From the NCBI GenBank assembly GCA_045133455.1, contig JBGUUJ010000035.1, positions 2,550 to 66,549 on the forward strand: a DNA stretch of 64,000 nucleotides. Reading direction: 5' to 3'. Position 1 is the stretch's first letter; each line of letters starts with the position of its first letter. Positions 1-48,621 of the stretch are shown here, one piece after another. Position numbers and translations under genes: made by a program. A model generated the notes under the pieces. That model did no database searches. It was not told the DNA's origin and worked only from the letters and a program-made list of their open reading frames with translations. This DNA is from Ruminococcus sp. (GTDB lineage: Bacteria; Bacillota; Clostridia; Oscillospirales; Acutalibacteraceae).

Positions 1-438
1 GAGCAGGAGCCTTTAACTGAATATCAGAGACTGATGAGGGGTGACTGTGAAGTCCTTTATAACCATCTTGGTACTAACCATACACAGATGGTTAAAGATA
101 CCATCGCTCTTGTGCCAGAAGGTGGTAACTATAAGGACCTTCCTCCTGGATGGGGCGAAAGCAGAAAGTTCCATATGGCTTGGACGCGACTGAACGGAAA
201 TGCCCCGGCAAGGACTGTTGATACAGGACACAGAAACCTTTTCCATTATCAGTACAATCGAATTCCTACTGTGCGCGAGAGCGCGAGAATGCAGTCATTC
301 CCTGACAATTTTGTTTTTACAGGTACAAAGACACAGCAAAGCAGACAGGTAGGAAATGCAGTTCCGCCGTTGTTGGGACAGGCACTTGGAGAAGCGATAA
401 TGAGAATTATACAGGAGAATGAAAATGGGCAAAACTAA
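1..438 (+). CDS. DNA (cytosine-5)-methyltransferase, C-terminal fragment (5' end outside window); first MTase of a LlaJI-like operon
   Basis: Frame 1 open from base 1 to TAA 436-438; C5-MTase motifs IX/X TVRESARMQSFPDNFVF and QVGNAVPPLL. Confidence 0.85.
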   Translation, partial: EQEPLTEYQRLMRGDCEVLYNHLGTNHTQMVKDTIALVPEGGNYKDLPPGWGESRKFHMAWTRLNGNAPARTVDTGHRNLFHYQYNRIPTVRESARMQSFPDNFVFTGTKTQQSRQVGNAVPPLLGQALGEAIMRIIQENENGQN

Positions 439-1669
439 AATTCGTTCCATCGATTTGTTTGCCGGATGTGGCGGATTGATGGATGGTTTTGAACAATCCG
501 GAGCCTTCGATACAATTGCAGCTGTTGAGTGGGAAAAAGTTCCCTGTAAAAATCTCGAAAACAGAATGCGTGAGAAGTGGCATTACCCCGATGCAGAAAC
601 ACGAGTTCTCCGCTTTGATATTCAAAGAACGGATGAATTGTTTGTGGGTTGGGAAAATGATAAAGAGTATGGTAACTCAGTTGGTTTAGATAAACTTATT
701 GACACTGTGGGCGGCATCGATGTCGTAATTGGTGGACCTCCCTGTCAGGCTTATTCCATTGCAGGGCGTGTTCGTGATGAGTTTGGCATGAAAAATGACT
801 ACCGAAATTATCTGTTTGAAAGCTACATCAAGGTATTAGACCGATACAGGCCTAAAGCATTTATCTTTGAAAATGTACCCGGGATATTAAGTGCAAAGCC
901 TGGTGATAGACCGATGATTGACATCATCCAGGAGAGTTTTCATGAGGCGGGGTATCTGTTGCTTTCCAATTTGGGTGAGGCAATAATTGACTTTACCGAC
1001 TATGGTGTTCCTCAAAACAGAAAGAGAATAATTATTTTCGGGGTTCGCAAGGATACTTTTGGAGACAGAAGTAGCGAAGCTATAAATTATTTCTATAAAG
1101 TAGCCTTGCCTAAACATAAAACCATGCAGAAAAAAACTGTTTATGAGGCAATCGGCGACTTGCCGAAGTTGTACCCTCTGTCTGAGGACCTAAAGGTAAA
1201 TGGTGCAAGAACAAGGCACTCTCTTCCTGAACGTGATGTTCCAAACCATGTAGCAAGATGGCAGAGTGACAGAGATGTTGGGATTTTTAAACTATTGACT
1301 GAAGATATCGAGTCTGGAAGAAATCAGTATACATCAATCGATGCACTGAAACAGTTATACACTAAGATGACGGGAAAGAACTCCAATGTTCATAAATATC
1401 ATGTTATCCGATGGGATGAGCCGAGTAACCTTATTCCAGCCCATCTTTATAAAGATGGCTTACGCCATATCCATCCAGATTCATCTCAACAGAGAACCAT
1501 AACCGTTAGAGAGGCAGCAAGATTACAAACTTTCGCTGATGATTATGTGTTTGAAGGCAGCAATATGGAATTGTATAAAATGATTGGAAATGCAGTGCCT
1601 CCGCTGTTTGCGAAGTGCTGCGCAGAAGCAGTTGTTGATACAATGTCAACATTTGGCATCATAGAGTAA
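419..1669 (+). CDS. DNA (cytosine-5)-methyltransferase (second MTase)
   Basis: Motif I DLFAGCGG, motif IV GGPPCQAYS, ENVPG, QNRKR, TVREAARLQTF, IGNAVPPLF; ATG 425 is better spaced from AGGAGA 411-416 than ATG 419; overlaps stop of upstream MTase. Confidence 0.93.
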   Translation: MKMGKTKIRSIDLFAGCGGLMDGFEQSGAFDTIAAVEWEKVPCKNLENRMREKWHYPDAETRVLRFDIQRTDELFVGWENDKEYGNSVGLDKLIDTVGGIDVVIGGPPCQAYSIAGRVRDEFGMKNDYRNYLFESYIKVLDRYRPKAFIFENVPGILSAKPGDRPMIDIIQESFHEAGYLLLSNLGEAIIDFTDYGVPQNRKRIIIFGVRKDTFGDRSSEAINYFYKVALPKHKTMQKKTVYEAIGDLPKLYPLSEDLKVNGARTRHSLPERDVPNHVARWQSDRDVGIFKLLTEDIESGRNQYTSIDALKQLYTKMTGKNSNVHKYHVIRWDEPSNLIPAHLYKDGLRHIHPDSSQQRTITVREAARLQTFADDYVFEGSNMELYKMIGNAVPPLFAKCCAEAVVDTMSTFGIIE

Positions 1670-1687
1670 TGAAAGGAGGAATGCATC

Positions 1688-4600
1688 ATGGCATATACAA
1701 CTTCGCAGGCTGTAGAGGCCTTAAATGAATATATGGGCTGTGATGAAGCCTTAAAACAGTACATAGAAGGTACGAAAGAAAGAGGCTTTGTTCTGTCCTT
1801 GAAGACCGGAGAGCAAATCGTGATTTTCGTTTACCCTTTGGTGCATAAACAAGATAATACTAAGAATTACTTTGACACAAGAGATAGTGGTGCGTATGAG
1901 CGTGGAGTAGCATGGAGATATGCGTTAGAACACGGTCTTAAGTACTACTGCTTTGGGTTGAATAGTTCTGTTGATAAGTATGAAAACTATATCTTCAGTC
2001 TTGAGTGCGGTGAGGAAACAATTGAGAAAATTTCCGGAACTAAGAATGGACAGCGAAGTGGTCCGGGTAATCAAATAATTATTCCTAACAATTACACGCC
2101 TGCCCTGCCTTTCGATAGAATCGTTAATAAGTTAGGGATTTATATTGCGGTAATACACAAGGACAAAATCTATGATTATATCTCGATGTATGATAACAGA
2201 CCTTATCTGAAGACAAGCACTGATGAAGTTACACAGCAAAATGATGATGCCAATGAGTACGAAAAGGCTGCCAGATATTTGCAGTCCTATGTCTCTGAAA
2301 CTGGCTTGGACATTCCTACGAAAAAGGATGATCTGGAATCTATACTTACAGAATTTACATCCAAGTTTTCTCCGGAGATTTTGGCAGCGTTATCGGATGA
2401 TGAACTGTTGAATTACCTGTTCTATACTGTTGGCGAGAACCAGGACTCCCTTTGCTGTTGGCTTGAAATGAACAAGGAGTGTCGTCAGCATTTTGGTAGT
2501 ATTTCCGGTGGTTCTGCTTATAAATTCGGTCTGTTCCAGAAACAGAAAACTGGAGAATGGACAACGGGTAGTCCTCAGAAACCACAGGTACTTACGGAAG
2601 ATGAGGCTTTAGAACTGGGGCGTAGCATACGAGATGCGTTGGTCAAGGCTGCAGGTATTGTTCAGAATGCAACTCTCGACACCCTTGCTGATTATGAGCA
2701 GTTGGATACTACTCTTTGGAACGAAGTCGGCGAGCCGTACTGTAATTGGGGTTGGTTCCACAAGTACCTTGCGATGGTTTGCCCAGATAAGCTGAGTTGT
2801 TTCCATTCCTCTGATTGGCAGCGCCACATTCTCTATGCATTGAAAATCAAGCCGAGTGAAAAATACTTTACTCGTAGCGGTCAGTTGGCCATGATTTCCA
2901 ATTATGCAGGATGGTATTATGGTGAGTTCAAGGATGTACTGTTTGAACGCTTTGGTGGAGACATCATTCAGTTTGTAAGAGTCGGCACTTCCGATGATAC
3001 CCAGAATTATGCAGCAGAATGGAATCAGAAATCTGTTATAGGTATCGGTTGGCGAGATATCGGTTCTCTTGAGGATTATGCCGCAGGTGAAGGTCTTGAT
3101 AAGGGTGCAATCACGGAGGCATTGAAAGAAAAATTCGGATATGCCGAGAATGTTGCCTCCCGCAAGGCAGGAGAACTTATTCGTTTTTATAAAATGGACG
3201 CAAGCACTGTTGTCGTTGCAATGGACGGCGAAAGTCTGTTAGCTTTTGTTGATGGTATCGGAAATTACTTCTATGATTTGACATCTGCAATGGCAAATAT
3301 GAAGCCTGGAACATGGCATCGCAATTTTGCATCCGGTGAGCAGCTCCCTGTGAAATCCGAGGGTAAATTGACATCTTGTTATCCTCTCACCGATGAGGCA
3401 AACTTGATGTTCCTGTATGATAGATACTATTACGGTAGCGAAGAAATTATTGATGAAGTCGATGAAATCGAGTTTGACAATCCGGAAGAACGTAATAAGC
3501 GTAACTTCCGTGCTTGGATGGAAACACAGGTTAAGCCGGAGGGTGATTCCGATGCAGGACAGCCTTACACGGCAAATTCCATCAATCAGTATGTAAGCAA
3601 CATTTCCAACACTCCACTCCCTTCTCATGAAGGACACAGTGTATTCTACACGGATGCTGTGATTGAAGTGCAGGATTGCTTGGTTGTGTTAGAAGCATCT
3701 GATAAGAAAAATAATACCCAAAGAAGTGCTGTCAAGAAATACTTGATGTACTTGATGGCGTTACAGGAGGTCAATATGCCGCTGATTTACAATACAGATT
3801 TACCAACTAAATATGAGAGAAATCGCATTGTCTTCGGCGCACCTGGTACTGGTAAGAGTTTCAATTTGAAGAGAGACTGCGAGGCGTGTCTGAAGGACAC
3901 AGAAGGTTCTTATGAGCGTGTGACTTTCCATCCGGATTACACATATTCTCAGTTTGTTGGAACATATAAGCCTGTTTCTGACGGTACCGCTATTCGCTAT
4001 GAATTTGTTCCGGGGCCGTTCATGAGGGTGTATGTTGAGGCATTGAAGAGTGCGCGTTCTTTGAATCCACAGCCTCATATTTTGATAATTGAAGAAATCA
4101 ACAGAGCCAAGGTGGCTGCTGTTTTCGGTGACATATTCCAGTTGCTTGACCGCGACGAGGATGGCGTCAGCGAATACGAAATTCAGACTTCTGAAGATAT
4201 CAGAAAGTATCTGGCAGCAGAACTGAAGTGCGATATTGCTATGTGCAAGAAAATCAAGATTCCGAATAATATGTTCATTTGGGCAACAATGAACAGTGCT
4301 GACCAAGGTGTATTCCCTATGGACACTGCATTCAAGCGCCGTTGGAATTTTGAGTATCTTGGCATTAATGAGAATCAGGATAAAATCAAAGGGCGTGTAC
4401 CAGTTGGAACTGTAAATACCCAAGAGATTGAATGGAATGTTCTGAGACGTGCAATTAACGAGAAAATTGCCAAGGAGTACAAGGTAAACGAAGACAAGCT
4501 GATGGGTCCGTTCTTCATTTCCAAGCGTGTACTGAAAACCGTTAGCGAGGAAAATGACACCCTTGTTGACGCAGCACGTTTTGTAGAAGTATTCAAGAGC

Positions 4601-4774
4601 AAGGTTATCATGTATCTTTACGAAGATGCAGCAAAACAGCATAAGCATAAGCTGTTCTCCGGTTGCGAGGATACCACCAAGTATTCTGCCGTATGCGACA
4701 GCTTTGACGAAATCGGAATCCAGATCTTCGGAGAGGATTTTGAGGAGGTTTATTATAATCCGCAGAAGGGATGA
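1688..4774 (+). CDS. McrB-like GTPase/AAA+ restriction subunit with ~690-aa N-terminal extension (LlaJI R1-like)
   Basis: Walker A FGAPGTGKS (3833-3859), Walker B LIIEEINRA, McrB-type MNSADQG and AFKRRW motifs; RBS GGAGGA; starts 18 nt after MTase stop. Confidence 0.85.
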   Translation: MAYTTSQAVEALNEYMGCDEALKQYIEGTKERGFVLSLKTGEQIVIFVYPLVHKQDNTKNYFDTRDSGAYERGVAWRYALEHGLKYYCFGLNSSVDKYENYIFSLECGEETIEKISGTKNGQRSGPGNQIIIPNNYTPALPFDRIVNKLGIYIAVIHKDKIYDYISMYDNRPYLKTSTDEVTQQNDDANEYEKAARYLQSYVSETGLDIPTKKDDLESILTEFTSKFSPEILAALSDDELLNYLFYTVGENQDSLCCWLEMNKECRQHFGSISGGSAYKFGLFQKQKTGEWTTGSPQKPQVLTEDEALELGRSIRDALVKAAGIVQNATLDTLADYEQLDTTLWNEVGEPYCNWGWFHKYLAMVCPDKLSCFHSSDWQRHILYALKIKPSEKYFTRSGQLAMISNYAGWYYGEFKDVLFERFGGDIIQFVRVGTSDDTQNYAAEWNQKSVIGIGWRDIGSLEDYAAGEGLDKGAITEALKEKFGYAENVASRKAGELIRFYKMDASTVVVAMDGESLLAFVDGIGNYFYDLTSAMANMKPGTWHRNFASGEQLPVKSEGKLTSCYPLTDEANLMFLYDRYYYGSEEIIDEVDEIEFDNPEERNKRNFRAWMETQVKPEGDSDAGQPYTANSINQYVSNISNTPLPSHEGHSVFYTDAVIEVQDCLVVLEASDKKNNTQRSAVKKYLMYLMALQEVNMPLIYNTDLPTKYERNRIVFGAPGTGKSFNLKRDCEACLKDTEGSYERVTFHPDYTYSQFVGTYKPVSDGTAIRYEFVPGPFMRVYVEALKSARSLNPQPHILIIEEINRAKVAAVFGDIFQLLDRDEDGVSEYEIQTSEDIRKYLAAELKCDIAMCKKIKIPNNMFIWATMNSADQGVFPMDTAFKRRWNFEYLGINENQDKIKGRVPVGTVNTQEIEWNVLRRAINEKIAKEYKVNEDKLMGPFFISKRVLKTVSEENDTLVDAARFVEVFKSKVIMYLYEDAAKQHKHKLFSGCEDTTKYSAVCDSFDEIGIQIFGEDFEEVYYNPQKG

Positions 4775-4780
4775 TAGGAT

Positions 4781-6250
4781 ATGGAGATAAAGATTCGTTC
4801 TCGCTATGTCCGAGAACAGCAGCGTTACACTAAGAATCAGCTGCGTACTCTTTTCTCCTACGATGATGTAGGAGTAGAAAAATTCATAAAAAGCCTAAAG
4901 TCCTACGGTATTTTAAAGACCGTTGCAAACACTGCGGAGCAGAAAGAATTGACAGACCTTGTTGATGAAGATGTCCAGATGGTGGATGAAACTGCCGGAA
5001 ACGATGATTGCTATTATGTGTTTACATATGTTGGTGTCATTACTATCGGAAATCGTGTAATCAAGGTTTATCCGAAATATATTCTTTCTGAAAATGAACC
5101 GCTTGCAAGAATGAAGCAGGTTGTGAAAGTTCTTGAACGCTACAGCCATTCGGAGGAGCAAATCATAAATCTGTTTAATGGTGACGGAGATAACCGCAGT
5201 TTTAATATTCTTGCGGTTATCCTGTACCTTTTGAACGACTACTACGAGTACGGCGTTTATAACAACAGCGAGGATATTTTGGAAGTCAACGGCGAAGGCG
5301 ATATTCTTTGGAACAGAACCATCGATGACGGATTTGTTATTATCGAGGAAGGCCGCCCGTATTATACAGAACTGATTACTCGTAGGTCAGTAGAAGATGA
5401 TATGGACTATTTCAAGCGCCTGCATGAGTGCGTTCTTACGGAATGTTCCAAGCAGCTCCAAGATGCTGGACTAAAAGAATTGTTTGAAATCGATTCTGTT
5501 TCCTTAAGTGATGAAGCCTTGGAGGACTTTGGCGAAAAGGAATATATTCTTGAGCGAATCATGAAAGAGTTGAATGTCCAGTTCAACACGCATCGGCAGA
5601 TTTTGCTCAAAACACTGTACACCTACATTTCACAGGACAGAAAAATGCTTGAAGAAAATCAAGGCATTAGTATGTTTGGCACCACCGCATTTCATGCAGT
5701 TTGGGAAAAGGCTTGTGCAGCCGCATTCGGAAACAAACTGGATGTTGCGATTGGTCAGTTGCAAATGAAGGAGCCGTTGGCAGACGGATACAATAAGAAA
5801 ACCAAGCTGATAGATTTGGTTGAGAAGCCAAAATGGTGTGGAGAGGGCTTTGTTCACGAACCCAAGGATACCCTTATCCCCGACCTCATTACCATCAATG
5901 AGTACAGTGGGCAGGATTGGTTCATCATTTTCGATGCCAAGTATTATCTGATTCAGCTTGAAAAAGGTCGCACATTAAGGGGCAACCCTGGCGTTGGCGA
6001 TGTAGTGAAGCAGTATATGTATCAGTTGGCATATAAGAAATTCTTGGCAGACCACCATATTGCGGTTGTTAAGAACTGCTTTTTGATGCCGACCGAAGGA
6101 AACGAAATAATAAACAAAGGGAACGCCAAATTGGATATGCTTTCCGAATTAGGACTGGAGGATATCCAGATACGTTTGATTCCGGCTGATATGCTTTTCG
6201 ATTGTTACTTGAGGCGAAAGACAATAGCTATCGAAAAATTGGAGTTGTAG
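4781..6250 (+). CDS. McrC-like / LlaJI R2-like PD-(D/E)xK nuclease subunit
   Basis: Starts 6 nt after the McrB-like gene; IPDL(x20)FDAKYY resembles PD...(D/E)xK (DAK at 5933-5941); gene order M-M-McrB-like-McrC-like matches LlaJI organisation. Confidence 0.7.
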   Translation: MEIKIRSRYVREQQRYTKNQLRTLFSYDDVGVEKFIKSLKSYGILKTVANTAEQKELTDLVDEDVQMVDETAGNDDCYYVFTYVGVITIGNRVIKVYPKYILSENEPLARMKQVVKVLERYSHSEEQIINLFNGDGDNRSFNILAVILYLLNDYYEYGVYNNSEDILEVNGEGDILWNRTIDDGFVIIEEGRPYYTELITRRSVEDDMDYFKRLHECVLTECSKQLQDAGLKELFEIDSVSLSDEALEDFGEKEYILERIMKELNVQFNTHRQILLKTLYTYISQDRKMLEENQGISMFGTTAFHAVWEKACAAAFGNKLDVAIGQLQMKEPLADGYNKKTKLIDLVEKPKWCGEGFVHEPKDTLIPDLITINEYSGQDWFIIFDAKYYLIQLEKGRTLRGNPGVGDVVKQYMYQLAYKKFLADHHIAVVKNCFLMPTEGNEIINKGNAKLDMLSELGLEDIQIRLIPADMLFDCYLRRKTIAIEKLEL

Positions 6251-6272
6251 CAGACATAAAGGAGGGTAGATT

Positions 6273-8156
6273 ATGGCAGCACATCGTTCATTTGCTGAAT
6301 ATGTAAAAAAGAAATTTGATAATAATTTCTGGGCGGCTGCCGAAAGCTACCTGGAGGCAAACCTTGATTCTCTGGGTATCGAATTAAAGAGAATCCATCG
6401 TGCCGGAGAGACGGAGATTTCAGATGTCAAGGTAGAACACGTGTGGGTTGAAGACAAACCGGGCATGGAGGTGCATTTCGATGTGGCCATTTCTATTTGG
6501 TTTGAAACCCATGATGGAGATTACCATTACGACGATTATGATGAAAATATCGTGTGGATGATGGCTCATTGCCGTGGTGATCTGGATAAGAACCTGGATG
6601 ATTTTGAAATCCTGCGGGTATCAAAATACAACGGCAAAAGCCGTGTGAAAGACCCGATGGACGATTCTCTTGTGCCGATTATCCCATATGAAAAGTTGGA
6701 TGATGTGGCAACAGCATTCTTGCAGGAATATTATCCGGCGGCACTTCGCATTCCAATGCGTGGTCAAGACCCTGTATGGGTTGACCCGACAGAACTTGCA
6801 AAGAACATGGGGTTAACCGTCAAAAATCAGCGTATCCGTGAAGATGGTTCTGTATTTGGACAAATTTATTTTGATGATACCGATACAGTAATGTACGATG
6901 CAAACGAGGATGCAGATGTTCCTACACACATCAAAGGAAAAACAATTGTTTTGGACCCGCAGATTTATCTGCTTCGAAATCTTGGTTCATTTAATAATAC
7001 CATTGTCCACGAGTGTGTTCACTGGGCGAAGCATCGTAAGGCATTCAAACTGGAACAGCTATTCAATACGGATGCTTCTTACATTAGTTGCAAGGTTGTT
7101 GGCGACGCGGATTCTCGCATATCCATAAAATCTACAAAGTATATGGAAAAGCAGGCTAATCAGCTTGCACCGAGAATCCAGATGCCGAAGGAACCTTTTA
7201 CAATAAAGGCTAAAGAATACATAGCCTATTTCATGAGACAGACCGATGCAAGGCATACGGTTGATGTCATGGAAATGGTAATCGGGGCATTGGGGCGGGA
7301 TTATGGTGTTTCACGACAAGCCGTAAAAGTCCGATTGGTAGAGCTTGGCTTTGAAGAAGCCATCGGCACATTTAACTATGTTGATGGACACTATGTAAAG
7401 CCACATGGTTTCCGCAAAGGTGCTATCAAAGTTAATCAGACATTTACTTTGAGCGCCCAAGACGCTGCAGTTCAGCGTTTTATGGATTTGGAACTCCGTG
7501 AAAAGACCGCAAACGGCGATTATCTTTTCGTGGATAACCATTTTGTTTATAACGCTCCCCTATATGTCGGTTATAGCAAAGATGGTAAACTTGAACTGAC
7601 TGATTATGCCCGAGCGCATATGGATGAATGCTGTCTTGCTTTTGATATGGAAATCACAAGCAAGGTAGAATCCACATACCATACTGCCTGTTTCCTTAAT
7701 CGTGAGCCGAGCGATGTAACCTTTGATATTACATATCACAACGGATATCAAAACGCGCCGCAATCGCGCCAGGTAGAGATGAGGAAAAAGCAACAGGCTG
7801 AATGGTTGGAAATTCGCAGGCAGATGACGGATGACCCTGAACAGTGTATGGATTTATTGCTTGATTGGCGTGGAATGAAGTACACGGACCTTGGTGATGC
7901 GATTGACCGTGACCCTAAAACAATCAGCCGAACAGTGAAAGGAACAACAAATCCATCTGTTGAAACAGCGGTTCTTATTTGCTTTGGCATGAACCTTCCT
8001 CCTGTTATCAGTGAAAAGCTGTTGGATGTTTTGAATTGCAAGTTAAAGCCTATGAATCCAGATCATCAGTGGATTAGCGAGGCTTTGCACGTGAAGTATC
8101 CGGAGCCATTGTGGGCAGTCAGAGAGTATCTGGAACAGTACGGTGTAAATATTTAA
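6273..8156 (+). CDS. ImmA/IrrE (peptidase M78)-like metalloprotease fused to a C-terminal XRE-like HTH; N-terminal ~240 aa unassigned
   Basis: HECVH (7008-7022) followed ~45 aa later by EKQANQLAPRIQMP, the M78 pattern; C-terminal YTDLGDAIDRDPKTISRTVKGTTNPSVETAVLICFGMNL looks like an HTH; RBS AAGGAGGG; 22 nt after nuclease stop. Confidence 0.65.
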   Translation: MAAHRSFAEYVKKKFDNNFWAAAESYLEANLDSLGIELKRIHRAGETEISDVKVEHVWVEDKPGMEVHFDVAISIWFETHDGDYHYDDYDENIVWMMAHCRGDLDKNLDDFEILRVSKYNGKSRVKDPMDDSLVPIIPYEKLDDVATAFLQEYYPAALRIPMRGQDPVWVDPTELAKNMGLTVKNQRIREDGSVFGQIYFDDTDTVMYDANEDADVPTHIKGKTIVLDPQIYLLRNLGSFNNTIVHECVHWAKHRKAFKLEQLFNTDASYISCKVVGDADSRISIKSTKYMEKQANQLAPRIQMPKEPFTIKAKEYIAYFMRQTDARHTVDVMEMVIGALGRDYGVSRQAVKVRLVELGFEEAIGTFNYVDGHYVKPHGFRKGAIKVNQTFTLSAQDAAVQRFMDLELREKTANGDYLFVDNHFVYNAPLYVGYSKDGKLELTDYARAHMDECCLAFDMEITSKVESTYHTACFLNREPSDVTFDITYHNGYQNAPQSRQVEMRKKQQAEWLEIRRQMTDDPEQCMDLLLDWRGMKYTDLGDAIDRDPKTISRTVKGTTNPSVETAVLICFGMNLPPVISEKLLDVLNCKLKPMNPDHQWISEALHVKYPEPLWAVREYLEQYGVNI

Positions 8157-8175
8157 AATTTTTTTCATAAAAAAA

Positions 8176-8192
8176 CGGACATGGCGTGTCCG
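8176..8192. repeat. palindromic hairpin CGGACAYGGCGTGTCC, copy 1
   Basis: cggacatggcgtgtccg: 6-bp stem, 5-nt loop, preceded by an A-run; near-identical copy at 9359-9374. Confidence 0.6.
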
Positions 8193-8208
8193 GTGAAATG
8201 GGGGGGAC

Positions 8209-9237
8209 ATGATGGGATTAACCATGCTTGAGATGATAGATAACAGGTTGGCGCACTTTTTTCCGCAGCCGGAATTATACGATGTTTCCCCGTTTAGCAT
8301 TGAGAATCTGCGTGATTGTATCATCATGTTTATTCTTAAAGATGCGTACTATTTGACTGAGCCGAAACAATCGTTAAGAGAAAATCGAGGAACGGATGCT
8401 GACGATGTAAGAATGCGTGACAGCAGAAATATTGCATATGCTCAGCATTATCGAGACCTTCAGTATAATCATGTAAAAAATGACTTAGGTATTGAAATAC
8501 CGGAGTTGCTTTCTGCGGATGTTGAAACCATGCGTGGAAAACTGCAGGGGCATAATATTACCCCGATGCAGTATTTTGAATTAAATACGCTTGCAGACCA
8601 TCCACTGCTTAAAGCTATCGTAAATAAGCGAATCTGTGACGTAAAGAAAATATCCAATGCAACCTTCCTTGAATATATGCAGGATTATGATAAATTGGTA
8701 AGCCTGCTTCTTAAAAAACTGGATGGCTCGGATGAGGATGTTATTTTCGGTACAATCGCCTTGTTTACATTGGAATGGAAATATAATGTAGAACTGTTTT
8801 ATTCCTGTGCAGTCAATGCGGAAGAAGTAGGGGTTCAGGATGTTCCGGTGCATCGCCTGGCGGGATTATGCGCCGAACTTTCAATGCCGTTAGCACCGGA
8901 TTTTACACAGATGCTTCATACAGAAAGTCGATTTGTCCTACACAGGCTGAAACTGGTACCAACCGTATATACCGTATCGGAATCAGATTGGGATGAAGTA
9001 AAAGATAAAATATGCCATTATCAGACGGCCAGATATTATATTGAGAAAGAGATTGTACGCAAATGGGATATGGCAGGTTTCTTTGCCCGATACACCACAA
9101 GAGAACAGTGGGCAAAATTCTTCCGGGAACACTATGATTTAAGACAAATATACGTTCAGAAGGAATGGAATAATAAACGCATTCGCTATATGAGAAGTAT
9201 TTATAGTGCGATGATTAAGAACCAACCTACACCATAA
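8209..9237 (+). CDS. hypothetical protein (342 aa, no motif recognised)
   Basis: Long ORF, same strand as upstream operon, followed by strong terminator 9295-9337; G-rich RBS before ATGATG. Confidence 0.5.
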   Translation: MMGLTMLEMIDNRLAHFFPQPELYDVSPFSIENLRDCIIMFILKDAYYLTEPKQSLRENRGTDADDVRMRDSRNIAYAQHYRDLQYNHVKNDLGIEIPELLSADVETMRGKLQGHNITPMQYFELNTLADHPLLKAIVNKRICDVKKISNATFLEYMQDYDKLVSLLLKKLDGSDEDVIFGTIALFTLEWKYNVELFYSCAVNAEEVGVQDVPVHRLAGLCAELSMPLAPDFTQMLHTESRFVLHRLKLVPTVYTVSESDWDEVKDKICHYQTARYYIEKEIVRKWDMAGFFARYTTREQWAKFFREHYDLRQIYVQKEWNNKRIRYMRSIYSAMIKNQPTP

Positions 9238-9294
9238 TCCCGTTTTTCCGATTTTTCGTTCTTAAAAGCCTTCATAAAATTTAGATAAAATTAA

Positions 9295-9337
9295 GCCAGA
9301 ACATGAGAGTAAATACTCTTCGTGTTCTGGCTTTTTT
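9295..9337 (+). terminator. Rho-independent terminator after the 342-aa ORF
   Basis: gccagaacatgagag...ctcttcgtgttctggc long stem followed by TTTTTT. Confidence 0.8.
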
Positions 9338-9358
9338 GCGTTTTACGGCAATTTTTAG

Positions 9359-9374
9359 CGGACACGGCGTGTCC
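9359..9374. repeat. palindromic hairpin CGGACAYGGCGTGTCC, copy 2
   Basis: cggacacggcgtgtcc, one mismatch to the copy at 8176-8192; the two copies flank the 342-aa ORF. Confidence 0.6.
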
Positions 9375-9512
9375 ATCGCAGAAAAAAATTCCAGTGTAAA
9401 CTATAAATAAAAACGCCTGACATTGAGACGGGTACACAGAAATGCGTATCCATCTGAGTGCCAGACACTCAAATAAAAAATATTCCAATGCCCGAAGTGG
9501 TCGACCTTAAGG

Positions 9513-9681
9513 CGGCGGGATACATCAAGAGTAAAATTCACGGTATAGCCGTGGACTGACCAAAGATGTACCCACCGTACTTTGTCATGCCCATTTTCGG
9601 TATCAGAGTCGGTGTGTAGCATCACATCGGCTCTTTTTGTGTCCCTGCCGCCACCCAGTCGGGCGGAAAAGAAAGGCAGGG
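9513..9681 (+). ncRNA. candidate structured cis-regulatory leader, copy A
   Basis: P1 9513-9526/9565-9577; P2 9539-9543/9549-9553; conserved core 9574-9601; intrinsic terminator 9605-9638 (12-bp stem with 2 G-U, then T5); hairpin 9643-9649/9675-9681 next to an RBS; stems covary with copy B. Confidence 0.6.
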
Positions 9682-10083
9682 ATTTCAAATGAGGAAATTC
9701 AAAACAGCGGAAGACAACCGTACAAATTACATTTACTACTTCAACGATGGTACAAGCTAGCTTGCTTATAAAGTCTTTAAATTGCATTTTATATCCTTCC
9801 CTATACAAGCCTATTCTGCACTAGCCAGTTATACCAATCCGATTTTCTATAATGAAAGCGACCCTAAGGCAAAGGGGGTCAAGCCTTGCAGAGAGGCAAA
9901 GCAGATTGGCAGAGAAATACACAATAGTGCTTTATGGGTGATGCTTAAGTATAGCACAAATTTGTAAATTTTTCTACCAAGTCTGTAAATGTCAATTCTG
10001 CGAACGCAATATTCAAATTCGCAATTTGCGGATTAACTTTCCGATAACCATATCAATCTCAAAGTCCGAGATGGCCATTAGGA

Positions 10084-10261
10084 CGGCGGGATGCATAGAG
10101 AATCCACACACAGCTTCACAGCTGTGCCAGGGATGAAGATGCACCCACCGTACTTCGTCATGCCCATTTTTCGGTCTGTTGGAGTCTGCGGTCATCTTCT
10201 GACCCCAGGCTCCTTCTTTTTGCATTCCGCTGTCCGAACCCCGTCCGGCAGAAAGGAATGC
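10084..10261 (+). ncRNA. candidate structured cis-regulatory leader, copy B (directly upstream of sigma-like gene)
   Basis: P1 10084-10096/10139-10150; P2 10109-10115/10120-10126; conserved core 10147-10175; terminator 10181-10221; hairpin 10222-10228/10255-10261 overlapping RBS GAAAGGA before GTG 10265. Confidence 0.6.
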
Positions 10262-10264
10262 TTA

Positions 10265-10828
10265 GTGAAGATTCAAATTTTGTATGAGGAAAACATCAGA
10301 AACGGACACAAGGTCTACACCACCATTGATATCCCTGACGGAGATTACAGCGTCATGCTGGATATCGACTACGAACAGAGGCTTGCAGAGGCAAAGCCGG
10401 AAAAGAAGGCAGAGGTCAAACGCTGTGAGACTGTGCAGGAGATGTTCGACCTGATGAACAAGAGAGAGTACAACGACTGGCGCAGGGAACACCGATACAT
10501 CGATCCGAACCCGAAGGCAAAGAAGATGGACGGTCACAAGGGCTATATCCAGGGAGATCCGGAAGATGAGTCTTTTGACATCATGGACTATCTGCTTACG
10601 GCATCGGACGATCATACCGACCTCGAGCGTGAGGAAGTCTGCTCCTGGATTCGCTCTGTACTTATTAAAAAACCGCAGTGGGCAGAAGCGTTTATCGCTG
10701 TCCGTATTGACGGCATGCCTATTCGAAAGTATGCAGCCACGGTCGGTGAGTCTGAGAACAGCATTACTCAGAAGCTGAACCGTGCCGCAAAAAAAATAAA
10801 AGAATTTTACGGAAACCGTAAGATTTGA
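10265..10828 (+). CDS. sigma-70 region-4-like transcription regulator (phage/ICE type)
   Basis: C-terminal HTH IDGMPIRKYAATVGESENSITQKLNRAAKKIK; GTG 10265 lies 7 nt after GAAAGGA; the ORF-track start 10091 would read through terminator 10181-10221. Confidence 0.55.
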   Translation: MKIQILYEENIRNGHKVYTTIDIPDGDYSVMLDIDYEQRLAEAKPEKKAEVKRCETVQEMFDLMNKREYNDWRREHRYIDPNPKAKKMDGHKGYIQGDPEDESFDIMDYLLTASDDHTDLEREEVCSWIRSVLIKKPQWAEAFIAVRIDGMPIRKYAATVGESENSITQKLNRAAKKIKEFYGNRKI

Positions 10829-10866
10829 CCGCCTCCCAAGGCTACCACTTGGAGGCGATGACCTCC
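10811..10866 (+). promoter_or_regulatory. boxA/boxB-like RNA motif, copy a
   Basis: GGAAACCGTAAGATTTGA then stem 10830-10840/10848-10857 with loop GCTACCA; alternative hairpin GGAGG/CCTCC 10851-10866; overlaps stop codon of the sigma-like gene. Confidence 0.5.
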
Positions 10867-10891
10867 GAATAAATTCAAGGAGGTAATTCGA

Positions 10892-11671
10892 ATGGAATTA
10901 CAAGTGTTTAACAACGCAGAGTTCGGCTCTGTAAGAACAACCACAGTAAACGGTGAGGTTATGTTTGTTGCTAAGGACATAGCCACGATCCTCGGTTACA
11001 GCAATCCGAGAGATGCTATCAACAAGCACGTTTATGATGAAGACAAGGGAGTAGCAAAATGCGACACCCTTGGCGGTGTTCAAGATTTGACTATCATCAA
11101 TGAATCGGGACTTTACAGTCTTATCCTGTCAAGCAAAATGCCTAACGCGAGGAAGTTCAAGCGCTGGGTAACAGCAGAGGTTCTTCCGGCGATCCGCAGA
11201 CACGGGATGTATGCAACAGAGGAACTTATCGCAAATCCCGACCTCGCTATTGCAGCATTCCAGGCATTGAAGGCCGAGCGTGAAAAGAGACAGGCTCTTG
11301 AGGAAGCGGTCGCAGTACAGGCACAGCAGATCGCAGAGCTTAAGCCGAAGGCAACCTATTACGATGTGGTTCTTAAATGTAAGGATGCCGTAAATATCTC
11401 CGTCATTGCCAAGGATTACGGCTGGAGCGCACAGCGAATGAACGAGTACCTGCATCAGAAGGGCGTGCAGTACAAGCAGGCAGACATCTGGCTTCTCTAC
11501 CAGAAGCATGCCGGATGTGGCTACACCAAGACCAACACACACGTTTACGAAGACACCTGTGGTCGTGAACATACCAAGGTCCATACCAAGTGGACGCAGA
11601 AAGGCAGACTGTTCATCTACGGACTGCTAAAAGCTGACGGTGTGTATCCTCAGATTGAGATGGAGGTTTAG
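10892..11671 (+). CDS. phage antirepressor (BRO-N + KilAC-like domains)
   Basis: N-terminal FGSVRTTTVNGEVMFVAKDIATILGY...ESGLYSLILSSKMPNARKFKRWV (Bro-N); C-terminal YYDVVLKCKDAVNISVIAKDYG; RBS AAGGAGG. Confidence 0.85.
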   Translation: MELQVFNNAEFGSVRTTTVNGEVMFVAKDIATILGYSNPRDAINKHVYDEDKGVAKCDTLGGVQDLTIINESGLYSLILSSKMPNARKFKRWVTAEVLPAIRRHGMYATEELIANPDLAIAAFQALKAEREKRQALEEAVAVQAQQIAELKPKATYYDVVLKCKDAVNISVIAKDYGWSAQRMNEYLHQKGVQYKQADIWLLYQKHAGCGYTKTNTHVYEDTCGREHTKVHTKWTQKGRLFIYGLLKADGVYPQIEMEV

Positions 11672-11674
11672 TAG

Positions 11675-12103
11675 ATGGGAGTAAACATCAGAAATTGCGA
11701 GGGTTACATGGATACCGTTACCTTTCAGGCGATTTCAAGTATTGACCATGAGGCGAAGGCAGCGTCAAAACCTGCCTTCCGTCCTCTGGTCTATATCTGT
11801 GCTCCGTTTTCCGGGGACATTAAAGCAAATAAGAAGAAGGCGGCGGAGTTCGCTGAGTATGCATACCGCAATGGCTGCATCCCTCTGACAGCACACCTGT
11901 TGTTTCCCTTTATGGATGACAGCAACAAGGCGGAGCGTGATACCGCGATCCACATGGACATAGTTTTGATGGGCAAATGCCAGGAGGTTTGGGTTCTGAA
12001 GGAGCACATCACCCACGGCATGCGCATTGAAATCGACAAAGCAAACAGACGCAGACAGAAGGTGCGTTATTTCAACAGCAGATTTGAGGAGGTACAGGAA
12101 TAA
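11675..12103 (+). CDS. DUF4406-like (nucleoside deoxyribosyltransferase-fold) phage protein
   Basis: VYICAPFSGD...AYRNGCIPLTAHLLFPFMDD pattern; family assignment from memory only. Confidence 0.45.
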   Translation: MGVNIRNCEGYMDTVTFQAISSIDHEAKAASKPAFRPLVYICAPFSGDIKANKKKAAEFAEYAYRNGCIPLTAHLLFPFMDDSNKAERDTAIHMDIVLMGKCQEVWVLKEHITHGMRIEIDKANRRRQKVRYFNSRFEEVQE

Positions 12104-12723
12104 TGGAACAGTTCACAGCAATTCAGACCGAATATAACGGTTATCTTTTCAGATCCCGCTTGGAAGCGAGATGGGCGGTGTTCTTTGATGCGATGGGAAT
12201 CGAATATGAGTATGAGCCGGAAAGTATCGTCCTGAGTGACGGTTCACTTTATCTGCCGGATTTCTATCTTCCTGACTTTAAGTGCTACTTCGAGGTGAAG
12301 CGCAAGAGCATTAAGGGTACAGAGGAAGAAAAGACAGTCATGGCTAAGATCAGCAATGGTGCCTATACCGACTCCTGGGCAGGCATTATCTGTTTCGGAG
12401 ATCCGATGGATGATGACCTCTACATCTTTTGCCAAGAAACCGATGACGGCGGTGGCGGCGGATACGAGGACAACGTTACGATTGGATTCCACCCGGACAC
12501 CTATGAGCCGTACCTTTTTGCCTACAACGACAGACGTGATAGAAGCTTCTTCACCCACTTCGGTGAGGACATGGAAGACGAGACGATTCCGATGCTGACT
12601 ACGGAATATGGCACCTATAAATACAAAAATTTTGTGAACGGACGTGTTTTCCGTGCCAGAAAGCAGGCTCGTCAGGCACGTTTTGAACACGGAGAGACTC
12701 CGAGAGCAAGGAGGGTTAGATAA
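12103..12723 (+). CDS. PD-(D/E)xK nuclease-fold phage protein
   Basis: FRSRLEARWAVFFDAMGIEYEYEP...YLPDFYLPDFKCYFEVK matches the D...(D/E)xK layout; RBS GAGGAGG. Confidence 0.5.
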   Translation: MEQFTAIQTEYNGYLFRSRLEARWAVFFDAMGIEYEYEPESIVLSDGSLYLPDFYLPDFKCYFEVKRKSIKGTEEEKTVMAKISNGAYTDSWAGIICFGDPMDDDLYIFCQETDDGGGGGYEDNVTIGFHPDTYEPYLFAYNDRRDRSFFTHFGEDMEDETIPMLTTEYGTYKYKNFVNGRVFRARKQARQARFEHGETPRARRVR

Positions 12724-15071
12724 TGCGTAATCTTGCAATCGCCTACGGCAATAACCGTCAGTCAAAAACCTGGGTCAACAAGACTATCACATTCGATGAA
12801 CTGAAGGAACGACTGAAAGTGACCATTCGCACCCCTGAGTCTGCGGAAGAATATGCCAAGTTCAATAAGGCAAAGAGGGATGCCGTGAAAGACCACGGTG
12901 GCTTCGTTGCCGGTGCCCTGAAGGGTGGCAGACGAAAAGTCGACACCGTGGAGCTTCGTTCCATGGTTGCCCTGGACGGTGACCGCATCGACAAGGCGTT
13001 CCTTGAAAATTATGAAACCAACGCTCCTTATACATCTCTGCTTTATACCACCCACAGCAGCACCGATGACGATCCGAGAGTCCGTCTGGTGTATCCGCTG
13101 ACAAGAGATGTTACCCCGGAAGAGTTCGTGGCAGTCAGTCGCTACCTGGCACAGATGCTGGGCATCGACTATTTTGATGAATGCTCCTACCTTCCGAACC
13201 AGCTGATGTACTGGCCGTCCACGCCATCCAATGGAAGCTTTGTGTTCCTGGATGTGGAGAAGGAGTGGCTTGATCCGGATGATGTGCTTGCTGCCCATCC
13301 GGAATGGACGGACCCTACAAGACTGCCTACCTCTTCAAGGGAAAGCAGGGCAAATACTACTGCATCTGTAAAGGTGCAGGATCCTCTTGATAAGGAAGGT
13401 GCTGTCGGTTTCTTCAACCGTGCATTCTTCCCTATCGGTCGTGCCATCGAAAAATATCTGTCGGATGTGTATGAGCCGACAGACAACGAGAACCGCTGGC
13501 ATTATATCCAGTCCTCCAGTATGGCAGGCGTGGAAATCATCGAGGGTGGCAAGTTCGTATACAGCCACCATGCCAAAGACCCTGCCTATCTCAAGCTGTG
13601 CAACGCCTTTGATCTCGTCCGCATTCACAAGTTCGGTGACGATGATGTGAAGAAATCCTTCAATGCCATGTGTGAACTTGCTATGCAGGACGATGAGGTC
13701 AAGCGTATCGCTATGGAAGAAAAACTGTCACAGGCGGAGACTGACTTCAATGTCTCTAACGGAGACTGGATGACCAGGCTCAAGTATCAGCCGAGGTCTG
13801 GTCAGCTGGAAAACAGCGTTTATAACCTGAACCTGATCCTCGCTAATGATTCGGATTTTAGAAGCTTTGCTTATAACGAAATGGCCAATCGTATCCAGGT
13901 CACTGGTCCGTTGCCTTGGGAGCGCCCAGAGGGAAATCAGTTCTGGCGAGATGCGGATACAGCACAGCTTAAGTCGATCATCGATATTCGCTACCTTCCC
14001 TTCTCAAGCAGGAATCATGATGTAGCTTTTACGAAGATTGCAGATGACAGGCATTTTCACCCGGTCCGTGACTACCTCGACAGTCTGCCGGAGTGGGACG
14101 GTATCGAGCGAGTGGAAGACCTTTTCATCCGTTATCTGCAGGCAGACGATACACCGTATGTCCGTGCAGTCACCAGAAAGACTTTTGCGGCAGCAGTTGC
14201 CCGTGTATATGTTCCGGGCATCAAGTTCGACTGTGTTCCGGTGCTGGATGGTGATCAGGGTATTGGCAAGTCCACCATCGTAAAAGACCTGGTCACTTCT
14301 GAATACTACTCCGAGACCCTATCCCTTACCGATATGGATGACAAGTCTGGTGCAGAAAAGCTGCAGGGCTTCTGGGCGGTGGAGATCGGAGAGCTTGCCG
14401 GTATGAAGAAAGCCGACATTGAGAAGGTCAAGGCCTTCCTTTCTACCTGCGATGACAAGTACCGTCCGTCTTACGGCAAGGTGGTGGAGTCCCATCCGAG
14501 ACAGTGCATCATCATCGCAACTGTTAATGGTGAGCGTGGATATCTTCGTGACATCACAGGTAACCGCCGTTTCTGGATCATCAAGCTGCATCAGAAGAAG
14601 CAGAAAAAGACCTGGGACTTCACACCGGAATACCGTGCGCAGTTCTGGGCAGAGGCAAAGGAAATCTGGAAGTCCGGCGAAAAGCTGTACCTCGAAGGTG
14701 ATCTCTTGGAAGTTGCAGAGGAAGCACAGCAGTCTGCTATGGAGGTGGACGAGCGTCTTGGCATGGTCGAAGAATATCTCAATACCAGACTGCCGGATGA
14801 CTGGGCGGACATGGATCTGTTCCAAAGACGCAACTTCCTCCAGGGCAGTGAGTTCGGTATGCCAGAGCATAAGGGAGCCGTTATGCGTACTGAGGTATCC
14901 AATGCGGAGATCTGGTGCGAGTGCTACGGCAAGCCACTCCAGGAACTGAAGCCAACTGACAGCTACAGCATTGCAGCTCTGATGGCACAGCTTCCGAACT
15001 GGGAGCGAACCACCTCGATCAAGCGTCAGCCGATCTATGGCAGGCAGCGACTCTACAAGAAGACAACATAA
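12723..15071 (+). CDS. primase / VirE-family helicase (replication initiator)
   Basis: Walker A DGDQGIGKST; VirE-like WAVEIGELAGMKKADIEKVKAFLS...YRPSYG...PRQCIIIATVN...NRRFW. Confidence 0.85.
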   Translation: MRNLAIAYGNNRQSKTWVNKTITFDELKERLKVTIRTPESAEEYAKFNKAKRDAVKDHGGFVAGALKGGRRKVDTVELRSMVALDGDRIDKAFLENYETNAPYTSLLYTTHSSTDDDPRVRLVYPLTRDVTPEEFVAVSRYLAQMLGIDYFDECSYLPNQLMYWPSTPSNGSFVFLDVEKEWLDPDDVLAAHPEWTDPTRLPTSSRESRANTTASVKVQDPLDKEGAVGFFNRAFFPIGRAIEKYLSDVYEPTDNENRWHYIQSSSMAGVEIIEGGKFVYSHHAKDPAYLKLCNAFDLVRIHKFGDDDVKKSFNAMCELAMQDDEVKRIAMEEKLSQAETDFNVSNGDWMTRLKYQPRSGQLENSVYNLNLILANDSDFRSFAYNEMANRIQVTGPLPWERPEGNQFWRDADTAQLKSIIDIRYLPFSSRNHDVAFTKIADDRHFHPVRDYLDSLPEWDGIERVEDLFIRYLQADDTPYVRAVTRKTFAAAVARVYVPGIKFDCVPVLDGDQGIGKSTIVKDLVTSEYYSETLSLTDMDDKSGAEKLQGFWAVEIGELAGMKKADIEKVKAFLSTCDDKYRPSYGKVVESHPRQCIIIATVNGERGYLRDITGNRRFWIIKLHQKKQKKTWDFTPEYRAQFWAEAKEIWKSGEKLYLEGDLLEVAEEAQQSAMEVDERLGMVEEYLNTRLPDDWADMDLFQRRNFLQGSEFGMPEHKGAVMRTEVSNAEIWCECYGKPLQELKPTDSYSIAALMAQLPNWERTTSIKRQPIYGRQRLYKKTT

Positions 15072-15228
15072 GCAAGTACACAAGACTGCGACACAGACAC
15101 AACTATTTCCCTTATATTACGAATGCGTTTTTTCAAGATATAGGGGTATGTAATCCGTGATATACGCACGTAGTAAATATAAGGGATTGGTTGTGAATTT
15201 CGTGTTCCTGTGTCACGGAGGAATTGGC

Positions 15229-21105: not shown

Positions 21106-21239
21106 CCACTATAAAATACACAATATATTGTATTAAAGATTGTGCATATTACTTTTCAAAATTGCTTGCTATTATCCTCAAAAAGAGCGAATATGTGTGT
21201 GCCGAAAGGGACAAACACACAATTACGGAGGACAAAAAA

Positions 21240-22187: not shown

Positions 22188-22252
22188 AGAATATAGGTAC
22201 ACACCCCACCGACCGCTTCGGCGGTCTTAAGGCGGTGAAAGGACTGATTAAA

Positions 22253-48619: not shown

Positions 48620-48621
48620 TT

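Follow-up and report, generated by a model that had tools for sequence, protein, structure and literature searches.

What is a gene that joins a metallopeptidase to a DNA-binding domain doing at the end of a restriction operon? This question is raised by a stretch of 64,000 nucleotides (nt) of Ruminococcus sp. DNA (contig JBGUUJ010000035.1 of GenBank assembly GCA_045133455.1, positions 2,550 to 66,549, forward strand; hereafter, the window, in which position 1 is the first letter), where a gene for a protein of 627 amino acids (aa), denoted P1 here, starts 22 nt past the stop codon of a LlaJI-type nuclease gene (4781-6250) and is followed by a gene for a 342-aa protein, P2. A sequence-only reading of this locus had located both open reading frames (ORFs), at 6273-8156 and 8209-9237, as well as the 22-nt gap and a strong ribosome-binding site (AAGGAGG ahead of P1), and all of these hold. 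It further described the two genes as appended to the LlaJI operon, either as a controller of that operon or as an independent sensor/effector module. The gene content of the window, judged by PHROGs and Pfam matches, is that of a siphovirus-type prophage, and we arrive at a different proposal, to which we give an even chance: P1 would be a single-chain ImmA/ImmR-like repressor of the early operon of this prophage, with the restriction system and P2 as flanking cargo.

A predicted peptidase and helix-turn-helix domain in one chain

The features on which the proposal rests are the following (positions in the window; strand; description).

6273..8156, plus strand: P1, peptidase-helix-turn-helix (HTH) fusion, 627 aa, ATG start; member of phrog_4031
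6273..6647, plus strand: P1 residues 1-125, helices and a four-stranded sheet; predicted local distance difference test score (pLDDT) of the model ~75-92
6678..7472, plus strand: P1 residues 136-400, CapP/IrrE-like zinc metallopeptidase with a helical linker and the start of the next domain, as matched by VIA
7008-7022, plus strand: HECVH motif of P1, residues 246-250, from the sequence
7089-7091, plus strand: Cys273 of P1, invariant in the alignment
7146-7148, plus strand: Glu292 of P1, invariant in the alignment
7617..7763, plus strand: P1 residues 449-497, predicted disordered linker (pLDDT <50) starting with the invariant E452-C453-C454
7827..8042, plus strand: P1 residues 519-590, XRE-type HTH; VIA matches and Pfam HTH_3, E 3e-3
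8176..8192, no strand: proximal palindrome O1, CGGACATGGCGTGTCCG, which begins 20 nt past the P1 stop
8209..9237, plus strand: P2, 342 aa, ATG start, in a variable slot
9293..9333, plus strand: terminator-like hairpin and T-run after P2 (inverted repeat, from the sequence)
9359..9375, no strand: distal palindrome O2, core GGACACGGCGTGTCC, from the pattern search
9507..9640, plus strand: degenerate second copy of the sigma-like gene's leader and 5' end (direct repeats 9507-9597 versus 10078-10170; alignment with loci L001 and L002)
10091..10828, plus strand: extracytoplasmic function (ECF)-sigma-like protein (phrog_11138), first gene after the slot; Sigma70_r4_2, E 5.9e-3

P1 is a single ORF without internal stops that encompasses both domains and is 627-631 aa long in most of the 120 listed homologs; it matches phrog_4031, a family annotated as 'unknown function', with E 8.2e-232 over profile positions 1-624 of 626. 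An AlphaFold model was built from 56 homologs (mean pLDDT 74.9) and compared by VIA with ~48,000 solved chains. In the region of residues 136-400, this model resembles CapP (7t5t, Z 12.9 over 170 residues), PprI/IrrE with single-stranded DNA (ssDNA; 8sln, Z 10.5) and PrpR (6d2s, Z 9.4; 6cyj, Z 9.1), these four being the only chains that reach Z>=8, and the pLDDT is 75-94 across most of residues 136-360. The best PADLOC match of P1 is also capP (E 4.8e-7), and several close homologs of P1 bear a precomputed match to the Peptidase_M78 family (PF06114). A Foldseek search with the whole P1 model gave 3dti as the top match (E 2.3e-3) and nothing at E<=1e-3, so that the domain matches come from VIA.

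The predicted catalytic residues and one cysteine are fully conserved: H246, E247, H250, C273 and E292 are invariant in 56 sequences of the P1 family, down to 29% identity. Residues 292-305, EKQANQLAPRIQMP, contain the E..AN...P motif with the glutamate ligand E292, and Q294, P300, I302, M304, P305, E452-C453-C454 and C570 are invariant in the same alignment as well. The cysteine is located on a predicted strand (residues 270-274) between HExxH and E292. In the preprint of Lau et al. 2022, the cysteine-switch residue of CapP, C113, is placed between H100 and E129; because C113 likewise sits between HExxH and the glutamate ligand, C273 of P1, as modeled, appears to occupy the position of a CapP-like autoinhibitory cysteine switch.

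Toward the C-terminus, a poorly modeled beta region (residues 400-448) is followed by the predicted disordered linker, a candidate cleavage or regulatory segment, and then by the HTH domain, a five-helix, lambda-repressor-like fold that VIA aligns (Z 6-7.5, root-mean-square deviation 1.6-2.5 Å) with 3pxp, C.AhdI, DdrO, ImmR, P22 c2 and SinR and, in the same Z range, with CapH; the matches of this domain in Protein Data Bank (PDB) profile searches are to CylR2/HipB, with E ~0.1. Among the prophage ORFs scanned in 1-50.6 kb, to which PHROGs was applied as well, P1 bears the only XRE-type HTH found by Pfam. As judged from sequence and model, then, P1 is an M78 peptidase and an XRE HTH in one chain with the catalytic residues kept, in agreement with the sequence-only reading, which had pointed to the same HECVH and EKQANQLAPRIQMP motifs and which the CapP/IrrE and XRE fold matches now bear out. 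The unassigned N-terminus that it described is indeed present, at ~125 residues rather than ~240, as residues 136-240 already belong to the CapP/IrrE-like fold. For residues 1-125, VIA gives Z 6-7 to Nup133 (6x04), cystatins and TcpC (3ub1), a weak cystatin/NTF2/VirB8-like likeness within the range of chance arrangements.

A two-protein counterpart is present in one related locus, L030, where the place equivalent to P1 is taken by two genes, one for an HTH protein of 155 aa and one for an M78 protein of 263 aa; the M78 protein aligns to P1 residues 132-360 with 26% identity (E 6e-13), and the cysteine is kept. In one IMG/VR contig (L009, 4261-6130), the match to the P1 gene is split in two, with the reading frame changing around residues 63-67, so either this copy is broken or the assembly is wrong.

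P1 as a prophage backbone gene

Relatives of P1 comprise at least 1736 protein clusters at E<=1e-3 (among 8000 scored candidates) and are found in 50 phage records, 38 of which are from Streptococcus, at 13 IMG/VR loci and in 333 confirmed stretches of a one-genome-per-species collection, nearly all of them from Bacillota by record title. Gene neighborhoods were counted in the best 80 of these 333 loci, among which 61 had at least 5 kb 5' of P1 and 71 had at least 1.3 kb 3' of it. A LlaJI homolog precedes P1 on the same strand within 3.5 kb in 8/61 loci (11/61 on any strand within 8 kb), an McrB-like AAA_5 gene in 20/61 and a C5 methylase in 32/61; P2 directly follows P1 in 11/71, and LlaJI and P2 both adjoin P1 in a single locus of 55. 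Phage replication or antirepressor genes lie within 8 kb 3' of P1 in 32 of 46 loci. The cargo 5' of the P1 homolog in the Streptococcus suis phage phi-SC181 consists of optrA, cat and IS1216, and in some S. suis prophages the record begins a few hundred bases from the P1 homolog.

In the window itself, a joint separates the restriction genes from P1.

6259..6288, no strand: mosaic joint, with the restriction cargo on one side and the P1 gene on the other, seen in DNA contigs of one public run (X15)

One contig of this run holds P1-P2 with other sequence before 6259, and another holds LlaJI up to 6288. Because the cargo varies between loci and this joint lies between LlaJI and P1, the region 5' of P1 is, by its gene content, a hotspot for cargo, with methylase and restriction genes in abundance; the paper that describes Candidatus Heliusvirales, whose Ruminococcus and Oscillospiraceae phages are the nearest named relatives of the window prophage, agrees with this in reporting cytosine methylases in 67% of genomes. 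Because P1 matches phrog_4031 over its full length, recurs in many phage records and loci, and has phage genes downstream, these comparisons make it a conserved backbone gene of Heliusvirales-type and Streptococcus prophages rather than an appendage of LlaJI. The view of the P1-P2 pair as appended to the LlaJI operon thus gives way to that of a conserved prophage gene with varied upstream cargo, in which LlaJI is one item (8/61), and LlaJI adjoins the pair in only the one locus in 55 mentioned above. The observation that P1 and P2 lie outside the canonical four-gene LlaJI system was accurate. The separation of the pair from restriction-modification (R-M) and defense genes is only partial, since the methylase/restriction hotspot lies 5' of P1.

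In several genome bins that are labeled Lachnospiraceae, Evtepia, Anaerovorax, Clostridia and Ruminococcus (loci L033-L036 and L056/L108), P1, mostly together with P2, is 97-99% identical, which reflects either recent spread of phages across hosts or mis-binned contigs.

Palindromes downstream of P1 and the border of the early genes

The short palindrome GGACAY-N3-RTGTCC occurs on both sides of P2, as O1 and O2; the window contains exactly two exact sites, against ~0.1 expected by chance. The search pattern GGACA-N5-TGTCC was run over 1.37 Mb of loci; since it was first found in the window and the loci are related, the 150 sites that it returned are not independent trials. All of them are located between -100 and +3000 of the P1 stop, and none lies 5' of the P1 gene. 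A palindrome 7-30 nt past the P1 stop was detected in 76 of 94 loci, a second one 300-3000 nt downstream in 45/72, and both in 43/72; where no gene occupies the slot between them, the two palindromes are 130-280 bp apart. The sites persist in loci whose P1 is only 41-44% identical, and the most divergent P1 homologs (L003, L004, L005 and L018) have no exact palindrome.

The consensus reads A-run, C, GGACA, Y, G, S, C, R, TGTCC, G, the five-base half-sites being fixed by the search pattern itself. Among 62 distinct proximal sites, positions 6 and 10 change independently of each other (TG 22, TA 19, CA 12, CG 6); 15 of these sites are unpaired at positions 6 and 10, and 20 at positions -1/+1. 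Because pairing is not kept at positions 6 and 10, protein recognition is favored over an RNA stem, and the sequence pattern fits a protein-binding site, with the half-site GGACAY and a spacing of one turn, better than it fits such a stem.

In the empty-slot loci, the P1 stop is followed in turn by O1, one or two terminators, O2, an AT-rich promoter-like stretch and the sigma-like gene. The order in the window is the same, with P2 inserted. The place of P1, with cargo on one side and the early genes on the other, is constant. The sigma-like gene, which is likely to be the first early gene, matches the NCBIfam sigma70-ECF model with E 1.2e-3 (E 2.5e-8 for the homolog in locus L047), all below the cut-off. 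The degenerate duplicate at 9507-9640 is a recombination scar from the replacement of one sigma allele by another; four public runs were compared here, and each departs from the window at 9759, the loose ends all having one sequence.

A variable slot and its occupant P2

The first ORF after P1 in the 80 loci falls into eight multi-member clusters (25, 17, 11, 7, 5, 4, 2 and 2 members) and seven singletons. The largest cluster is a family of 253-439-aa proteins with a weak XRE HTH (HTH_19/HTH_26/HTH_3; RstR-like, E 4e-4), the second (n=17) is the P2 family, and the third (n=11) is the sigma-like gene itself, that is, no slot gene is present. The others are a 384-aa family (n=7), the DUF6076 family (n=5), a 600-aa family (n=4) and the two pairs. 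Comparison of P2 by hhalign with four other slot families revealed no relation. By these sequence comparisons, the slot holds at least eight unrelated gene families or is empty, and P2 is one of its occupants. In many relatives, a conserved ORF of 61-69 aa (IRNLxSDK..PPRFC..) is located after the slot gene and before the distal palindrome, as in L001 (12249-12437), L002 (11170-11355), L010 (7752-7943), L011 (11018-11227) and L014 (11252-11440); no such ORF was seen after P2 in the window, and it has no family match.

The P2 family is small: a word search found 117 clusters, and 314 representatives reach E<=1e-3 in an exhaustive profile search. P2 was present in the window's own genome and in no other of 401 that were sampled from the phylum; narrower sub-alignments of P2 recovered few loci in metagenome scans, and one of them recovered none. 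The model of P2 is confident (pLDDT 92.4; predicted template modeling score, pTM, 0.91) and consists of helices with one beta hairpin, in keeping with the mostly helical protein expected from the sequence-only reading, and the family has many invariant charged residues. No match was found in Pfam, PADLOC, PHROGs or NCBIfam; the best hit of the PDB profile search has E 0.39, Foldseek gives at best E 0.87 (PDB) and 0.49 (BFVD), and the top VIA score is Z 4.4. The protein atlas contains only unnamed clusters of P2, and its longer relatives (P0269, P0367, P0280, P0318, P0377 and P0376) have no informative Pfam domain. The predicted structure of P2 thus has no known family or fold among the databases searched, and a role in defense or exclusion would be a guess from its position.

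Outside P1 loci, distant relatives of P2 occur in diverse company. Two of them, both ~30% identical to P2, directly follow M78/HTH genes of other architectures: in L030, whose upstream LlaJI-like genes are 68-71% identical to those of the window, the relative comes after the separate HTH_3 and Peptidase_M78 genes, and in L031, after a 414-aa fusion with an N-terminal HTH joined to M78. The others adjoin a UvrD/PD-(D/E)XK helicase and an AAA_23 ATPase (L032), a restriction-enzyme fragment and a serine recombinase (L116), T5orf172 (L118), and topoisomerase, TnpV and RadC-YodL genes of conjugative elements (L131 and L135). Hence, of the seven informative contexts without P1, two are M78-linked and five (L032, L116, L118, L131 and L135) have no adjoining M78 gene.

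The gap between P1 and P2 is 52 nt long and contains the palindrome only, with no evident promoter. One metatranscriptome contig of 1156 nt spans 7742-8896 and thus bridges P1 into P2, and such contigs from two studies cover LlaJI, P1 and P2, a weak hint of expression. RNA-library contigs of one run (X10) give little or no cover at 7986-8162, and those of X10 and X12 likewise after 9225; contig ends at 9242 and 9269, just past the P2 stop, hint weakly at termination there.

A possible lysogeny switch and its alternatives

The arrangement of these elements suggests how P1 might act. In a lysogen, the HTH of P1 would bind O1 and O2 downstream of its own gene; O2 lies between the terminator of the left arm and the promoter-like stretch before the sigma-like gene, so that bound P1 would keep the early operon off, that is, the sigma, antirepressor and replication genes. 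Upon DNA damage, ssDNA could act on the peptidase, by analogy with CapP and PprI, and open the cysteine switch; activation of CapP and PprI/IrrE by ssDNA is described in the literature. The peptidase might then cut P1 in cis or in trans, probably within the disordered linker at residues 449-497, which would part the HTH from the rest of the protein and relieve repression. The LlaJI genes and the slot gene, here P2, would be exchangeable cargo beside the regulator, similar to the lysogen-expressed morons that are found next to repressor genes. A distantly related Streptococcus prophage, phi1207.3, is reported to be weakly induced by mitomycin C in a paper whose accessible text does not discuss regulators. 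A broader form of the proposal strikes us as rather improbable when taken as a whole: P1 would serve both Heliusvirales and the related resistance-carrying Streptococcus prophages as a single-chain master repressor that cleaves itself, with operators bracketing a cassette slot that is co-expressed with the repressor in lysogens, and P2 would be an effector with a new fold wired to M78/HTH switches of several architectures.

Several observations weigh against P1 as the repressor of the early operon. Both Pfam matches are below the cut-off (Peptidase_M78, PF06114, on residues 243-355, E 2.7e-4 and 21.2 bits against 22; HTH_3 on residues 531-570, E 3e-3 and 18 bits against 23), and PDB-sequence profile searches with the whole P1 alignment or with residues 132-410 returned marginal HTH matches or nothing, and no M78 structures. 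The recognition-helix variants with TIQRLRN (L017, L099, L100 and L107) keep the same palindrome, no co-variation of the recognition helix with the palindrome is visible across loci, and in Bacillus-type loci the palindromes are flanked by A- and T-runs and there look like bidirectional terminators; hairpin formation, or binding of a protein other than P1, could also account for them. The HTH protein present in the slot in 25/80 loci could be the true repressor and a substrate of P1. The G+C content is 40-44% over 1-9500 (methylases, LlaJI, P1 and P2) and 46-52% over ~9500-17000 (the replication module); because the left arm differs in this way from the replication module, P1 would seem to travel with the cargo-like arm in the window phage. 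The neighborhood counts come from phylogenetically related loci and are not independent, contigs from RNA libraries cannot prove transcription, strand or transcript ends, and we infer that P1 binds the palindromes, acts as a protease and cleaves itself.

The palindromes in particular admit a reading, somewhat unlikely in our view, as structural hairpins (terminators or RNA-stability elements) or as recombination boundaries for cassette exchange, the DNA target of P1 then being elsewhere. Their stems of 6-8 pairs, the A-run (70-88% A) before site 1, the A-/T-run flanks in the Bacillus-type loci and the exact coincidence of the two sites with the ends of the segment that varies from phage to phage would all be accounted for in this way. 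However, both positions of the sites are kept in lineages whose P1 is as little as 41-44% identical, a divergence at which terminator stems have usually drifted, and pairing is lost at positions 6/10 (15/62) and -1/+1 (20/62). It is also conceivable, albeit unlikely, that P1 and P2 form a dedicated two-gene sensor/effector module, for instance for abortive infection or exclusion, with the M78-HTH protein as the sensor of infection or damage and P2 under its control or activated by it. The 52-nt gap with the palindrome and no evident promoter, the RNA-library contig across the P1-P2 junction, the invariant charged residues and the confident model of P2 without a known fold are compatible with such a module, and so are the distant P2 relatives that directly follow two other M78/HTH architectures (L030 and L031), on which the independent-module claim may still draw. 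Against such a module, P2 follows P1 in 11/71 loci only and the slot otherwise holds unrelated genes or none; moreover, five of the seven informative contexts of P2 relatives without P1 have no adjoining M78 gene, and mobile elements often have M78+HTH regulators at their cargo borders, so that position alone may explain the adjacency.

Two further alternatives assign P1 other targets. As a protease on other proteins, P1 would cleave the slot HTH protein, like an ImmA-type anti-repressor whose own HTH is only a DNA tether, or would act on host factors as a counter-defense protease of the ArdC kind. The weak-XRE-HTH protein of 253-439 aa in 25 of the 80 slots offers a candidate substrate, the MPTase-PolyVal family matches P1 weakly (E 0.04), and P1 adjoins methylases that protect phage DNA, by the counts given above and in the Heliusvirales paper. 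Yet many slots have no HTH protein (P2, the 384-aa and 600-aa families, empty slots), while P1, its HTH and the palindromes are conserved there, and the best fold matches are regulators (CapP, IrrE and PrpR), not ArdC; we regard this possibility as quite doubtful. Control of the upstream R-M operon by P1, in the manner of a C protein or of CapH/CapP, appears very improbable. CapP and CapH do regulate defense operons (Lau et al. 2022; Calloji et al. 2026), methylases (32/61) and McrB-like genes (20/61) are frequent upstream, P1 starts 22 nt past the nuclease gene, and its HTH resembles C.AhdI, C.BclI and C.Esp1396I, yet it resembles equally many other XRE proteins. Against this, most P1 loci have no restriction gene upstream, resistance genes and an insertion sequence taking this place in phi-SC181, the mosaic joint at 6259-6288 parts LlaJI from P1, and P1 comes at the 3' end, away from the operon promoter. 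The sequence-only reading had named P1 as a possible controller of the R-M operon; the variation of the upstream cargo and the confinement of the palindromes to the downstream side of P1 (0/150 on the 5' side) argue to the contrary.

Other features of the prophage

The restriction genes that precede P1 are listed below.

1..438, plus strand: 3' part of C5 cytosine methylase 1; Pfam DNA_methylase, E 7.7e-14 for the part in the window
419..1669, plus strand: C5 cytosine methylase 2, 416 aa; Pfam DNA_methylase, E 2.8e-57
1688..4774, plus strand: McrB-like AAA_5 GTPase/ATPase subunit of the LlaJI-type restriction module, 1028 aa; Pfam AAA_5, E 1.6e-12; PADLOC REase_II PDLC03448, E 3e-138
4781..6250, plus strand: LlaJI-type nuclease subunit, 489 aa; Pfam RE_LlaJI, E 3e-54; PADLOC PDLC03447, E 5.7e-239

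By these matches, the four genes constitute a LlaJI-like set, namely, two C5 methylases, an AAA_5 protein and RE_LlaJI. The complete methylase 1 (369 aa; DNA_methylase, E 9.6e-71) occupies contig positions 1878-2987 and thus starts before the window; it is cargo, outside the P1 module. It is preceded, at contig positions 354-1511 (5' of the window), by a gene for an NgoFVII-like restriction nuclease of the phospholipase D (PLD) family, and because this gene comes before the first methylase, the left arm may contain two restriction systems.

After P2, the early part of the prophage encodes the ECF-sigma-like protein, an antirepressor, a nucleoside deoxyribosyltransferase, a nuclease, a primase-helicase and an SNF2 helicase. 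The late part encompasses a late regulator, terminase, portal, capsid and tail genes, and further on there are genes for holin, amidase, exonuclease, single-stranded DNA-binding protein and DNA polymerase, followed by two serine recombinases at 47078-50610. A gene for a MerR/TipAS-type regulator (25101-25829; MerR_1, E 2.6e-19; TipAS, E 1.4e-32) is located between the large terminase and the portal genes, an unusual position for a moron, and the packaging region also contains a gene pair for an amidoligase and a gamma-glutamyl cyclotransferase (21162-22729). Past the recombinases, a gene for an HTH_3 protein (57204-57629, 141 aa) overlaps one for an SprT-like zinc protease (57616-58272, 218 aa), a second HTH/metalloprotease pair that probably belongs to a different element.

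Implications and comparison with known systems

In the literature, we found no description of the P1 family, its palindrome or its slot. By published description, Heliusvirales rank among the most widespread lineages of temperate phages in the human gut, and the main text of the paper that defines them names no lysogeny regulator, with 0 occurrences each of 'repressor' and 'peptidase'. What would be new here is a single-chain variant of a known protease/repressor switch in an abundant gut phage lineage. If P1 is indeed the switch, a large uncharacterized family (at least 1736 protein clusters and 333 genome stretches) gains a function, and a predicted operator and a testable induction mechanism become available, along with a natural single-chain form of the logic of ImmA/ImmR and CapP/CapH. 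The related Streptococcus prophages carry antibiotic-resistance cargo beside the P1 gene, and the bracketed slot is a defined place to seek new lysogen-expressed genes, given that P2 and at least three other slot families have no annotation.

Among known systems, LlaJI R-M matches the four upstream genes in its components, whereas P1 and P2 are not among these components and LlaJI adjoins P1 in only 8 of 61 loci. In fold, P1 shares with the PrpR/RamB-type regulators of Mycobacterium tuberculosis (6cyj and 6d2s, Z 9.1-9.4) the combination of an XRE HTH and a COG2856-like domain in one chain. The PrpR/RamB-type proteins are metabolic regulators with an N-terminal HTH; unlike them, P1 keeps all catalytic residues. 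The IrrE(PprI)/DdrO system of Deinococcus resembles P1 in both domains, with the peptidase matching 8sln (Z 10.5) and 3dti (Foldseek E 2.3e-3) and the HTH matching DdrO (6rnz, Z 6.4). The DdrO operator is a 17-bp palindrome, and the functional analogy with P1 would extend to ssDNA activation and to the 17-bp palindromic operator. By contrast, IrrE and DdrO are separate proteins that govern a chromosomal stress regulon, whereas P1 is a phage gene.

In ICEBs1, the metalloprotease ImmA inactivates the XRE repressor ImmR after DNA damage, and COG2856/XRE pairs do the same in the lysogeny modules of Firmicutes phages. As with P1, the genes are located near the integrase/att end of the element, with an antirepressor gene nearby. 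Such systems consist of two separate small proteins, with the repressor gene usually first. The HTH of P1 matches the fold of ImmR (7t8i); P1 differs in being one chain of 627 aa, with all genes co-oriented and a cargo slot between two putative operators. CapP/CapH resembles P1 in several respects: CapP is the best fold match (7t5t, Z 12.9) and the best PADLOC match of P1, the HExxH and glutamate zinc ligands are shared, a conserved cysteine lies on a predicted strand between them at what would be the switch position, and the partner of CapP is an XRE protein. P1 is distinguished by its single chain with a C-terminal HTH, by the extra N-terminal domain of ~125 residues and the extra region at residues 400-500, and by its place as a prophage backbone gene as opposed to a regulator ahead of a defense operon. 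The preprint of Lau et al. reports 15 capH-capP fusions and 24 systems with a sigma factor, and the latter, by analogy, parallel the arrangement of P1 and the sigma-like gene described here.

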